Source of the DNA: Candidatus Micrarchaeia archaeon
GTDB taxonomy: Archaea; Micrarchaeota; Micrarchaeia; Burarchaeales; JAVZCV01
Length of the DNA: 28,917 nt
Direction: 5' to 3'
NCBI GenBank assembly: GCA_038874215.1
Contig: JAVZCV010000014.1
Span: 1 to 28,917, forward strand
The number at the start of each line of letters is the position of its first letter. Position 1 is the stretch's first letter. Of the stretch, positions 6,001-8,262 are shown piece after piece. Made by a program: the position numbers.

Positions 6001-8262
6001 GACGGCTTCGCCCTGCCCACGTGTAGCTCACATCGGCTTCGGGTCTCATGAGAGTGATTAACCGCACTTTCATACGGCGGGCCTCCCTTTCGGTGCGCCC
6101 TATCGCTTTCGCTACGCCTTTCAGCTCACCACTCCCATGAACTCCCTGGCTCTTGCTTCGAGAAGAACGATGCAACCCTGTTTGGCGTTGGCTCGCTCAT
6201 CGCATCTCTGCGAATTGCTTCGCCACGCTACATTCCTTTCGGGCAGCATCGACCTGTAGTCTCTCAGTTTCAGGCTCTTTTCACTCCCCTTCCGGGGTAC
6301 TTTTCAGCTTTTGCTCGCGCTACTAGTGCGCTATCGGTCTCGGGTTATATTTAGGGTTGGATGTTAATACACCCATATTCACGCCCCATACCCGAGGGGC
6401 GCTACTCACCGCTCATCCTTCCCCATGCCTACGCCTACGGGGCTATCACCCTCTATGGCAGAGCTTTCCAGCTCTCTTCGGCTCGGCAGAAGGGATAGTT
6501 GATGAGCACCACATCTCCCACACATTACTGTGCAGGATTCAGGTTGCCCTGTGCGGCTTTCAGTCGCCCTTACTAACCGCATCCCTTTTGGTTTCTTAGA
6601 ATTTTGCCAACCTCATTCAAAAACGGGTTGGCAAAATTTTTCCTGCGGGTACTAAGATGTTTCAATTCCCCGCGTAATTACCCATTACTGGGTTATGGGC
6701 AATCCTGGGTTCAAGGGCTGCCTGCGCCTACCCCAGGCTTATCGCAGCTTGCCACGGCCCACAACTACCCGAGCCTAGCCATCCCCTGAGAGACAGCAAC
6801 AGCATCCGTGAACATGCATCGCCTCTCTTCATCCTCATGACTCTCAAGCATGAGAGCTGCCTTTCGGCGCATTCCCAACAGCGTTGGGACATGCTACTCG
6901 TGAAATGAGTAGTATGAATGTGATATGGACTCGGCGAGAAGTTCAGAGGGCAACCCATCTTGAACACAGATGTTTATGGGGAAGCCCTTCTTTTGAACTC
7001 GCGGCCTCCTCCTTATTTGAAACTTTTCTTTTTAAGAAAAGTTCACGCAAAGGAGGCGCTCTACCACTGAGCTACGAGCCCAACCTTTCAACTGTGTTTC
7101 AAAAGAAACACAGCACAACCCCAAGAACCGAATCCACGCTCTCGCGCCTTGCACGTAAACTAAAGGAGGTGATCTATCCGCAGGTTCCCCTACGGATACC
7201 TTGTTACGACTTAGCCCCCCTCATAAAGCTCTAGTTCGACGCTACCACGAGGATAACGCCTCACTAGAACCTTACTTGGGTGACTTGACGGGCGGTGTGT
7301 GCAAGGAGCGGGGACGTATTCACCGCGCGATGTTGACACGCGATTACTAGGGATTCCAGCTTCATGAGGGCGAGTTTCAGCCCTCAATCCGAACTCAGGC
7401 TAGGTTTGGGGATTAGCTTCTCCTCTCGGAGTCGCAACCCATTGTCCTAGCCATTGTAGGCCACGTGTAGCCCGGGAGATTCAGGGCATACTGACCTACC
7501 GTCGCCCTCTCCTTCCTCCTGCTTAACGCAGGCAGTCTCTACAGAGTGCCCGTTTCAAAAGAAACGGTAGCAACTGTAGACGAGGGTCTCGCTCGTTTCC
7601 GGGCCTGCGGGCATCAAACTTTCAAAAATTTAAGATGAGTTTTTACAAAACCAAGAAAATCTGATGAGATGTAAAGAGCACTGCCTATGCGCTTTGTCCT
7701 AAAATTGAGTCTTTCAAGCATGTGCTCGTCTGCTTCGTCGGCTCTTGCTAGGAAGGGCAAGCCTTTGCGGATACCACCACAACCATCAAAAAAGCCTGCG
7801 AGGTATTCTGCGCTCTTTTCGTTCCTTTCTCTGAAAATATTCAAGCGCTCATTGACAACCTTCTGAAAAAACTTTTTGTAAGCGGAGTGATAGAAGTATG
7901 CCTCGTTCTCTTTTATCGTTATCTTATCCCCACGCGTTAGCCCGTTTCTGATGCACTCTGAGACGAATATTCCAACTATTTTTTTGTTTCCTGTTATCCC
8001 TATTCCGTGCTCTCCCCCTCTCGCCTTCCATAGGCCAACTACATATGCGATATTTGGAGTTAGTTTCAGCTTCATTCAATCACTCTTCAATCAACATGAG
8101 GCTGCCCACAGGCATACCGGACTTAACCGGACAGCTCACACCACGAGCTGACGATGGCCATGCACCACCTCTCGGCTCGTCTGGCAAGATCTTCAGTCTG
8201 GCCTTCATACTGCCGTCTCTCCCGGTAATATTCCCGGCGTTGAATCCAATTGAACCGCAGCC

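Follow-up and report, generated by a model that had tools for sequence, protein, structure and literature searches.

A 16S rRNA intron in Micrarchaeota encodes a probably domesticated LAGLIDADG protein without catalytic acids

Overview

The single 16S rRNA gene of this Micrarchaeota genome is interrupted by an intron that encodes one small protein. We interpret this protein as an exapted (domesticated), nuclease-dead LAGLIDADG protein in an otherwise ordinary BHB intron, and give this reading a probability of about 0.7. Because the gene has been kept up across the phylum despite the loss of the residues that cut DNA, the protein probably now works for the cell. The window referred to below is the whole stretch of DNA analysed (28,917 nucleotides), and all features described in it lie on the minus strand.

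Once its intron is fixed, a homing endonuclease gene is expected to decay. In this case, a LAGLIDADG gene is kept intact phylum-wide without its catalytic residues and shifts between an rRNA intron and ordinary places in the chromosome. We know of no described domestication of this type in a protein-spliced BHB intron, and our search of the full-text literature found no description of the family; Micrarchaeota and homing endonucleases occurred together there only for group I introns. In genome-reduced DPANN archaea, the family offers a testable candidate for a lineage-specific factor linked to the ribosome, and a natural case for studying how the intron of an rRNA can act as a messenger. There is a consequence for annotation as well: neither Pfam nor NCBIfam has a model of the family, and the copies inside 16S genes are lost whenever rRNA operons fail to assemble.

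The intron in the 16S rRNA gene

The interrupted 16S rRNA gene occupies 7164..9272 (Rfam RF01959, 1412.8 bits, model positions 1-1478) and is the only Rfam 16S match across the whole genome, with no second gene found. Aligned end to end with the archaeal SSU model, it has 519 extra nt between positions 1033 and 1035 of the model. Read together with the bulge-helix-bulge rule, the alignment divides the gene into exon 1, the 5' part (8115..9272), a BHB intron of 518 nt (7597..8114), and exon 2, the 3' part (7164..7596), whose junction matches intron-free relatives. The 5' half of the BHB (8114..8120) comprises the CCGG helix strand at 8120-8117 and the bulge UAU at 8116-8114, with the 5' splice site after 8115; the 3' half (7596..7602) comprises the CCGG strand at 7602-7599 and the bulge AAA at 7598-7596, with the 3' splice site after 7597. 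A 4-bp helix, CCGG/CCGG (8117-8120 with 7599-7602), therefore stands between 3-nt bulges on opposite strands, and a cut after the second bulge base sets the intron ends. Below it, the closing helix h' of 11 bp pairs 8103..8113 (5' strand) with 7603..7613 (3' strand), the latter beginning right behind the stop codon of the encoded protein. Cofolding of the boundaries (-37.9 kcal/mol) and reading by hand gave the same BHB, and, together with the Rfam alignment, they led to exactly the ends reported in the preliminary description. In the cofold, the 3' bulge lies within a small internal loop; the motif is a slightly relaxed BHB, and the intron ends may be off by 1-2 nt.

Removal of the intron would restore the conserved mature rRNA sequence: the predicted junction, ..CCGGUA/ACGAGCG.. 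(the slash marks the joint), is identical, letter for letter, to that of the intron-free relatives G194 and G003. The insertion had earlier been placed in the helix-35 loop. This presumed helix reflects the position of the Rfam gap only; by the BHB, the junction falls another 7 nt to the 3' side, just past the GUUAAGUCCGG hairpin. Within alignment ambiguity, this is the archaeal 16S intron locus 1093 described in the available part of PMC4496867.

The claim that relatives carry the intron at the same site, with a covarying closing helix, holds in a larger sample. In 45 relatives the gene lies within the 16S rRNA gene, and the alignment could be anchored in 44 of them. Among these 44, the central helix is paired at 4/4 positions in 42, and at least 9 of the initial 10 closing-helix positions are paired in 38. 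There are 34 distinct 5' strands of this helix, and strand pairings made across families average only 5.9/10. The 3-nt bulges of relatives read UAA, UAU, CAA or GAA on one side and AAA or UAA on the other. An Rfam scan of the window returned rRNA and tRNA only, with no match to a group I intron. The genome itself encodes splicing machinery, namely one frame with two tRNA_int_endo domains plus RtcB. In vitro, strict and relaxed BHBs alike are cut by a three-unit endonuclease from a cultured-lineage relative, according to the available text of PMC3239211. In the proposed mechanism, the splicing endonuclease and RtcB would have to excise the intron for the ribosome to work, and the excised intron would amount to scarcely more than the message for a single protein of 153 aa.

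One DNA run yielded a 677-nt contig identical over the intron. Three metatranscriptome runs covered conserved 16S parts only, with zero depth over 7661-8086. Joints seen in these runs (7597/7599 to 8120, with extra letters between) were rejected as evidence of splicing or expression, as they derive from intron-free rRNAs of other organisms.

The encoded protein

The intron is filled almost entirely by a reading frame of 153 aa plus stop (7614..8075; coding part 8075-7617, stop 7616-7614), just where it had been reported. We infer that this frame is translated. A possible ribosome-binding site, GAGUGAU (8079..8085), lies 3 nt before the ATG; its GUGAU is complementary to AUCAC at the 16S 3' end, and the motif recurs at the equivalent place in relatives' introns.

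As noted before, the protein of the window is nearly invisible to sequence searches. It has no Pfam match at E<=10, and hence none to a LAGLIDADG model above threshold; the PDB sequence search gave nothing significant (best E 0.041, a PDZ domain), and NCBIfam offered no relevant family. Among 71 family members, however, 11 match Pfam LAGLIDADG_3 weakly (best 3.2e-6), extending the weak matches first seen in a smaller set, and 6 match Hom_end. An ESM feature search placed an I-PogI-family cluster at 0.90 among the clusters listed.

Structure prediction confirms the LAGLIDADG fold, and with it the earlier assignment to a LAGLIDADG-like family. The AlphaFold (AF2) model is confident (pLDDT 96.9, pTM 0.91) and depicts a miniature monomeric two-domain LAGLIDADG protein, with a core that spans all 153 residues, although domain 1 shows a single short strand ahead of its second helix and the beta-strands are only 3-4 residues long. 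The top Foldseek matches were to I-DmoI (E 3e-5), and VIA-align superimposed the model on this enzyme with a Z of 14.5 and an rmsd of 3.0 A over 148 residues; other matches were I-Tsp061I (Z 13.2), the WhiA N-domain (12.2) and the bI3 maturase (9.9). The protein probably descends from an I-DmoI-type monomeric homing endonuclease of the LAGLIDADG class. Members of the family are basic, with a pI above 8 in 136 of 138. The exposed beta-strand positions vary among members, and this variability speaks against one conserved sequence-specific target.

Both motifs have lost the residue on which cleavage depends. In the window protein, motif 1 (VVGLWKARG, aa 12-20; 8016..8042) is degenerate and carries R19 at its penultimate position, while motif 2 (LAGFFDGCG, aa 92-100; 7776..7802) carries C99. 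Neither is the metal-binding acid that an active enzyme has at this position of each motif, and the available text of PMC3384342 gives D21 and E117 as the corresponding catalytic residues of I-DmoI. The family profile aligns the penultimate position with the E of PI-PfuI's motif. Across the family, D or E occurs there in just 1/138 aligned members for motif 1 and 1/138 for motif 2; the 44 aligned members that are intron-borne include 1 such case for motif 1 and 0 for motif 2. The residues found instead are mostly Arg, Ser or Asn (motif 1) and Cys, Ala, Val or Ser (motif 2). The preliminary description had reported one catalytic position as not conserved; the acid is indeed gone, but from both motifs rather than from one position. 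These two motif positions and the short strands suggest that the family protein no longer cuts DNA.

An alternative is that the protein is still a selfish homing endonuclease, active through an unorthodox catalytic site, and that its intron persists by homing into empty 16S alleles of relatives. Nuclease activity through an unusual active site may exist; D97 is invariant across aligned members, the fold is closest to those of real archaeal intron endonucleases, and the insertion site is, within the same ambiguity, the known homing locus 1093 (PMC4496867, in the part available). Furthermore, the 16S genes of relatives carry further introns at other sites with canonical LAGLIDADG ORFs (e.g., the L083 ORF). 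Against it stands the absence of the canonical acid from 137 of 138 members at each motif, as well as the inheritance and location of the gene described below. We consider such an active enzyme quite unlikely.

Distribution, inheritance, and selection

The family was sought in 401 genomes of the phylum, 188 of them high-quality. It was matched in 294, including 150 of the high-quality set, and 283 of the 294 contain a single match; the earlier wording of one copy per genome in "most" Micrarchaeota remains apt. Presence is complete in some host families (76/76 in f15, 30/30 in f9) and in all nine single-contig genomes. On the other hand, no member was found in f17 (0/26, with a better profile), f20 (0/8), f22 (0/4), or f23 (0/4); the protein is thus not required by every member of the phylum. 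Metagenome bins make up most of the genomes, and some of the genomes, G167 and G127, are mixed. Two apparent double copies were rejected: that in G127 reflects two different 16S contigs in a mixed bin, and that in G401 two near-identical copies from strains. A pattern search built from a 4-row alignment returned 15 confirmed loci, all 15 with Micrarchaeota-type titles, although such patterns reach close relatives only.

The gene is vertically inherited and under purifying selection as a single host gene. On the protein tree, host-family labels need 23 changes relative to a minimum of 21, compared with 88 for shuffled labels, which bears out the reported inheritance along host families and leaves no sign of horizontal spread or patchy distribution relative to host phylogeny. 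Within host families, the gene may have moved. Such near-perfect tracking of the host, and the single copy per genome, are difficult to reconcile with a selfish element. Reading frames are intact in nearly all genomes, with few matches containing internal stops, and dN/dS is about 0.06-0.2 in close pairs from all three location classes, unlinked copies included.

Could the gene instead be a functionless, decaying relic of an endonuclease gene in a fixed intron? The lost catalytic residues and the failure of Pfam to recognize the window protein would fit, but intact frames, the low dN/dS, about 20 positions conserved at >=80% across the phylum, and a confident structure model make a relic extremely improbable. 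Domestication, rather than a purely selfish endonuclease, had been proposed for this family before, and the missing acids, single copy, host-following tree and selection support it.

Location of the gene within and outside the 16S

Three location classes had been counted previously and recur here. Of 140 genomes, 45 carry the gene within the 16S, all at one site; in 36 it is encoded downstream of the 16S on the same strand; and in the other 59 the flanks examined contain no rRNA. Where gene and 16S share a contig, they can be as distant as ~296 kb (G062) or ~961 kb (G301). The unlinked copies had been described as sharing no synteny. This proved incorrect, as they occupy conserved neighborhoods within host families, termed c2-FAM (f15, f19), FAM-HEAT (f9), and FAM-MetRS (f13/f14/f26), and this within-family synteny strengthens the domestication reading. 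Neighbors of free-standing copies are rich in translation genes (MetRS, ThrRS, aIF5B, S11/S4/S13), a weak functional hint given the small genomes. A universal partner gene was considered and rejected: the 158-aa upstream ORF c2 (f15, f19) has no Pfam match, was not found in this genome, and is unrelated to the upstream ORF of f26 (E 0.046).

Switches between intron and 16S flank number at least five on the 16S tree and represent some kind of mobility. An AU test did not reject a single clade of the f10 non-intron copies (p 0.32). That the gene entered or left the 16S so often would suit a selfish element. Outside the intron, however, syntenic copies, some with TATA-like motifs, belong to genomes with an intact, uncut 16S target. 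The site is intact and intron-free in 13 of 15 downstream-copy loci inspected, the motif search being unanchored in the other two. At -27 to -33, TATA-like heptamers are present in 11/36 downstream copies compared with 2/36 for an internal control. Exon-like flanks, or fossil exons, were found around none of the 36 downstream and none of the 59 unlinked genes. A supposed "mini-intron" remnant at the f9 site was likewise dismissed, since the ~45 extra bases sit upstream in the preceding hairpin rather than at the site.

The same observations bear on a maturase-like helper for folding or splicing of its own intron. LAGLIDADG maturases without nuclease activity are known (PMC3384342, in the part available), and the bI3 maturase is among the structural matches. 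Yet the splicing of BHB introns relies on a protein enzyme whose sole requirement is the BHB, the closing helix is already a stable 11 bp, and the gene is conserved without any intron, beside intact intron-free sites and with no exon-like flanks. A role of this kind is very unlikely.

A dead endonuclease could, alternatively, guard the site by binding the 16S rDNA homing site (the GUUAAGUCCGGUAACGAGCG region) and blocking invasion or cutting by introns that bear active endonucleases. The protein is basic, the site is intron-free and conserved where the gene lies outside the 16S, and the 16S genes of the phylum are heavily invaded elsewhere by introns with canonical endonuclease ORFs. Nevertheless, intron-borne copies are equally strongly purified though their site is already disrupted, the strand residues expected to read an invariant DNA site are variable, and the strands themselves measure only 3-4 residues; keeping a protein bound within the most transcribed gene would presumably also be costly. 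On balance, we regard a site guard as unlikely.

Possible role of the domesticated protein

Under domestication, hosts would retain the gene in the intron, as an ordinary gene behind the 16S, or in conserved neighborhoods elsewhere. For its function we tentatively prefer, as one possibility among several, a basic nucleic-acid-binding factor acting on the small-subunit rRNA or its precursor in ribosome biogenesis, with intron-borne synthesis coupled one-to-one to 16S transcription. A fuller version is somewhat more speculative. In it, a lineage-specific SSU rRNA-binding or biogenesis factor would be encoded inside the gene of its own substrate; tRNA-type splicing would release one (probably circular) intron messenger per 16S transcript; a moved-out gene with its own promoter behind the 16S would restore the coupling; and homologous recombination of whole alleles between relatives would flip the states, always leaving exactly one copy.

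Comparison with known systems

The intron resembles the locus-1093 introns of Thermoproteales and those of ARMAN-2 and Mia14, as all are BHB introns in the same conserved 16S region. Locus 1093 is listed with 15 endonuclease ORFs in the available text of PMC4496867, and the introns in the 16S genes of Mia14 and ARMAN-2, cited earlier as published, are indeed stated in PMC5498576. The wording "homing endonuclease" or "LAGLIDADG" does not occur in PMC5498576, and the available parts of the two papers describe neither the ORF family with its free-standing forms nor its dead active site and its vertical inheritance throughout the phylum.

The protein shares its monomeric two-domain LAGLIDADG fold, encoded in an rRNA BHB intron, with I-DmoI, I-Tsp061I, and the I-PogI family. 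Unlike these, it is ~40 residues shorter, with strands of 3-4 residues. Further differences from I-DmoI-type enzymes are that neither motif of the Micrarchaeota family has an acid as its penultimate residue, that the gene is inherited vertically in single copy and occurs outside introns too, and that the window protein has no Pfam match.

With group I intron maturases such as bI3, the family shares the LAGLIDADG scaffold (Z 9.9). Organellar LAGLIDADG maturases are intron-encoded, have lost nuclease activity, and serve RNA (available text of PMC3384342). In contrast to bI3-type maturases, the host intron here is a protein-cut BHB, and the gene is kept in intron-free genomes.

Finally, WhiA/DUF199 of Gram-positive bacteria is likewise a LAGLIDADG scaffold without catalytic acids in a conserved single host gene (Z 12.2); its residues at the catalytic positions are Arg and Gly, as given in the available part of PMC3384342. 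LAGLIDADG_WhiA was not among the Pfam families listed for the 71 members, and the C-terminal helix-turn-helix DNA-binding domain of WhiA has no equivalent in the model, which is LAGLIDADG core only, or among the Pfam matches. Unlike WhiA, the Micrarchaeota family is archaeal and still resides inside its own intron in many lineages; it would be an archaeal counterpart of WhiA- or maturase-type domestication.

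The 16S rRNA intron and its splice junction

The rRNA operon of the window lies on the minus strand and comprises the 16S rRNA gene (7164-9272) and an intron-bearing spacer tRNA (6994-7081), both found by Rfam, and the 23S rRNA gene (3563-6811). The 16S gene, the single one found in the whole genome, is 2109 nt long vs 1478 in the Rfam model, and aligning it to that model reveals insertions of 46, 58 and 519 nt; the largest falls between model positions 1033 and 1035. Read by hand on the RNA strand (minus throughout), CCGG at 8120-8117 pairs with CCGG at 7602-7599 as the central helix of a BHB motif, the bulges are UAU (8116-8114) and AAA (7598-7596), and an 11-bp closing helix with one U-G pair joins 8113-8103 to 7613-7603. 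A two-strand fold gives the same helices at -37.9 kcal/mol, with an extra U-A pair in the central helix and AAC unpaired facing AAG, a slightly relaxed BHB. In pre-tRNA, the usual rule places each cut of a BHB behind base two of the bulge. Applied on both sides, it predicts a 518-nt intron at 7597-8114, in agreement with the preliminary description, and the predicted junction is identical to the uninterrupted sequence in the relatives G194 and G003.

The window's genome encodes RtcB and a splicing endonuclease with two tRNA_int_endo catalytic-domain matches in one 602-aa open frame (G000:C2:36262-36741; loci L203 and L204). Two such matches in one frame are what the three-unit type described for ARMAN-2 should show. 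A three-unit endonuclease of a relative cuts both strict and relaxed BHBs in vitro (PMC3239211). The window intron is a standard BHB intron.

The two smaller 16S insertions (46 nt, 8899-8945; 58 nt, 8519-8575; both minus strand) each fold as hairpins, with z of -2.7 and -4.9, and may represent either mini-introns or expansion segments. The spacer tRNA, with anticodon UGC, contains about 30 inserted nt following the anticodon loop. Like the 159-nt tRNA gene at 21279-21437 (minus strand), which has a CAU anticodon and apparently two insertions by eye, it was found by Rfam and not by ARAGORN.

Among the 140 homologue-bearing genomes collected, 45 carry the gene between 16S exons at the window's site, and 44 of these could be anchored. 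The central helix pairs at 4/4 positions in 42 of the 44, the other two being mis-anchored by the anchoring pattern. In the closing helix, at least nine of the initial ten positions pair in 38/44 and all ten in 24/44, with 34 different 5' strands represented; strands combined across host families form 5.9 of 10 pairs on average. The introns, 462 to 633 nt long (median 518), are filled by the ORF, whose start codon, along with a GAGUGAU-like motif, falls within the closing helix's 5' strand or directly behind it. The frame stops at the 3' strand or continues into exon 2, and this read-through accounts for the ..GNERDPR ends seen on several proteins in databases.

A LAGLIDADG fold with a degenerate active site

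Neither Pfam nor NCBIfam gave a match to the window protein, and no PDB sequence matched it significantly. A word-indexed search recovered 3 relatives, and only 120 were found at E<=0.001 when 1.84 billion representatives were searched with a profile. Of the 71 members aligned, 11 match LAGLIDADG_3 (best 3.2e-6) and 6 match Hom_end, and the best PDB match of the family profile is the second motif of PI-PfuI (E 0.054). AlphaFold, given the 71-row alignment, models the window protein with pLDDT 96.9 and pTM 0.91. The top Foldseek matches of this model are to I-DmoI (E 3e-5, TM 0.65-0.69), and VIA-align gives Z of 14.5 for I-DmoI (rmsd 3.0 A, 148 residues), 14.3 for PI-SceI, 13.2 for I-Tsp061I, 12.2 for WhiA and 9.9 for the bI3 maturase. 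The modelled beta-strands span just 3-4 residues, and in domain 1 a single one precedes the second helix. Exposed strand positions vary across the family; conserved residues are mostly those of the core plus K51, Y62, H/N63, S/T64, N85, D97 and D116.

The metal ligands of I-DmoI, D21 and E117, occupy the penultimate LAGLIDADG positions (PMC3384342). Across 138 near-full-length members aligned, 44 of them intron-borne, D or E stands at this position once in motif 1 (R19 in the window) and once in motif 2 (C99). Restricted to the intron-borne proteins, the counts are 1/44 and 0/44, and the D97 position is D in 137/138. Fold and intron location would suit an active selfish enzyme; the loss of this defining catalytic feature argues against one.

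Other introns at other 16S sites of relatives hold canonical LAGLIDADG ORFs that keep the acids (L004 488-1117, with motifs LLGLLHGDGN and VGGLLDAEGC; L083 2064-2624, with a LAGLIDADG_3 match at 6.8e-11; L037), so that active-looking and dead family members coexist in one gene. In several host families, a further 16S insertion, lying about 266 nt inside exon 2, harbours a family of 250-260-aa ORFs with no Pfam match (L005 591-1343; L006 364-1152; L083 866-1639; L037 4509-5255).

Distribution across the phylum

A 4-row profile matched 294 of the 401 genomes sampled from the phylum, and 150 of the 188 rated high-quality. The sample is mostly bins, lies within one class and was partly ranked by E-value. 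The family is present in all sampled genomes of host families f15 (76/76) and f9 (30/30), in 16/17 of f19, 74/94 of f10 and 63/83 of f11; it was found in 1/7 of f16 and 2/7 of f21, and this profile did not find it in f17 (0/21), f20 (0/8), f22 (0/4) or f23 (0/4). With a 71-row profile, f10 gave 36/41 and f11 34/41, and 26 f17 genomes yielded no true member, only matches at E 4.5e-7 and weaker, nearly all within frames of about 500-1450 aa, which we take for inteins. Absence from a bin is weak evidence, chiefly where the lineage has its copy inside the 16S, since rRNA operons are often missing from assemblies.

Of the 294 genomes, 283 gave one match and 11 gave two; all nine single-contig genomes have one copy. 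Two of the double-match genomes proved on examination to be mixed or multi-strain bins. G167 (contigs C110 and C6, the former bearing a second, foreign 16S) and G127 (C18 and C19) each contain two different 16S genes and are therefore mixed; their "second copies" are not paralogues. When prokaryotes were scanned with sequence patterns, at one genome per species and with a reach limited to close relatives, 15 loci were confirmed, all titled Micrarchaeota, Micrarchaeia or Bilamarchaeaceae. The nearest ESM Atlas clusters are assigned to Microcaldota, the phylum to which Candidatus Micrarchaeia belongs.

Two genomes that are unpublished, namely G198 (an unlinked f11 copy whose flank is short) and G029 (an f10 copy 385 nt downstream), enter the distribution, location, tree, active-site, dN/dS, pI, exon-flank, f10-constraint and TATA counts. 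Dropping them shifts none of these counts by more than one, and the conclusions depend on neither.

Location and gene neighbourhoods

Locations were classed at a single locus in each of 140 genomes, from 1.5 or 6 kb of flanking sequence. The gene lies inside the 16S in 45 (all of f1-f4, f6, f7, f18 and f34, 17 f10, 11 f11 and the foreign contig in G167). In 36 it shares the strand of the 16S and follows it at a distance of 131 to about 4250 nt (f9 12, f10 13, f11 7, f12 2, f14 2). The remaining 59 have no rRNA in their flanks (f15 17, f11 12, f9 11, f10 7, f19 5 and six small families); only 12 of these were searched for at least 5 kb on both sides, and some of the others may be distant downstream cases, the gene in G042 being 4411 nt from the 16S. 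In f15 the separation is real: many 16S genes measure 1491-1590 nt without a large intron, and gene and 16S lie about 296 kb (G062) and 961 kb (G301) apart on one contig. One f9 unlinked copy (L045, G120) is broken by an in-frame TAG, a possible pseudogene or sequencing error.

Genomes that carry the gene elsewhere have an unbroken 16S site, and exon-like remnants flank none of the 36 downstream or 59 no-rRNA genes. A gene retained where there is no intron to splice tells against a maturase. The intact, intron-free site would suit a site guard; against a guard stand the variable exposed strand positions and the purifying selection on intron-borne copies, whose site is already disrupted. Downstream f10 and f11 copies are preceded by a conserved CCUCAAGACU element and a T-run, 60-80 nt past the 16S 3' end in L057, L084, L089, L081, L116, L123 and L127; these are probably a terminator together with the 3' strand of the stem at which the 16S is processed. 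TATA-like heptamers at -27 to -33 from the ATG occur in 11/36 downstream copies vs 2/36 in an internal control, and in 1/43 in-16S copies.

The preliminary description saw no shared synteny among unlinked copies; neighbours are in fact conserved within host families. A 158-aa ORF without an assigned family lies directly upstream on the same strand in f15 and f19, and the gene downstream in f15 is presumably ThrRS-like, judging from its sequence. A HEAT-repeat gene always follows in f9, whether the 16S is near or not, MetRS in f13, f14 and f26, and aIF5B, DUF488 or Ham1 in f11. In f10, S11-S4-S13 lie beyond the gene, and the same three lie beyond the 16S in f10 genomes with an intron-borne gene, so the gene has shifted only a few hundred bases within a fixed neighbourhood.

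Inheritance and selection

On a quick maximum-likelihood tree of 138 short proteins, 22 host-family labels need 23 changes (minimum 21, shuffled mean 88). Close pairs of all location classes have dN/dS of 0.06-0.2 (Nei-Gojobori). Median within-family values over all usable pairs are 0.135 (intron-intron, n=6), 0.29 (downstream-downstream, n=24) and 0.215 (unlinked-unlinked, n=35), with higher values where dS nears saturation. A relic would share the degenerate active site; such constraint in every location class is the behaviour of a host gene.

Host families are monophyletic on a similarly quick 16S-exon tree of 49 loci, along which the in-16S/downstream state changes seven times. At least five changes are forced by well-supported branches, as with G101 (downstream), nested in a 99% clade that includes G127 and G215 (both in-16S). 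The protein tree requires 17 changes between in-16S and other states, 3 of them forced, and a constraint uniting all non-intron f10 copies was not rejected (p 0.32). Because in-16S copies fall to either side of the root, an intron-borne ancestor is reasonable, the root having been placed at the midpoint and not inferred. Switches that keep one copy may reflect homologous replacement, between relatives, of a whole allele comprising the 16S 3' half plus the gene.

Relation to known introns and LAGLIDADG proteins

16S BHB introns with LAGLIDADG ORFs are known, locus 1093 among them (PMC4496867), and group I introns in Micrarchaeota rRNA genes have been published (PMC6125680). That the Mia14 and ARMAN-2 16S genes contain introns is stated in PMC5498576, in which neither "homing endonuclease" nor "LAGLIDADG" occurs. 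Supplements aside, we found no literature report of the family, its dead active site or its phylum-scale vertical inheritance, nor of its switching between a BHB intron and ordinary chromosomal sites.

In summary, a descendant of a LAGLIDADG endonuclease that lacks the defining catalytic feature and the mobility pattern of that enzyme family, and that behaves as a host gene, is read as exapted. The proteins are basic (median pI 9.3-9.5; above 8 in 136/138). This charge, a scaffold that has been kept, a physical link to the 16S gene that recurs, and the translation-related neighbours make nucleic-acid binding tied to small-subunit rRNA the most economical guess at a role, albeit one that we would sooner expect to fail than to hold. 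Domesticated LAGLIDADG proteins already known include WhiA, maturases and HO (PMC3384342; PMC7282813).
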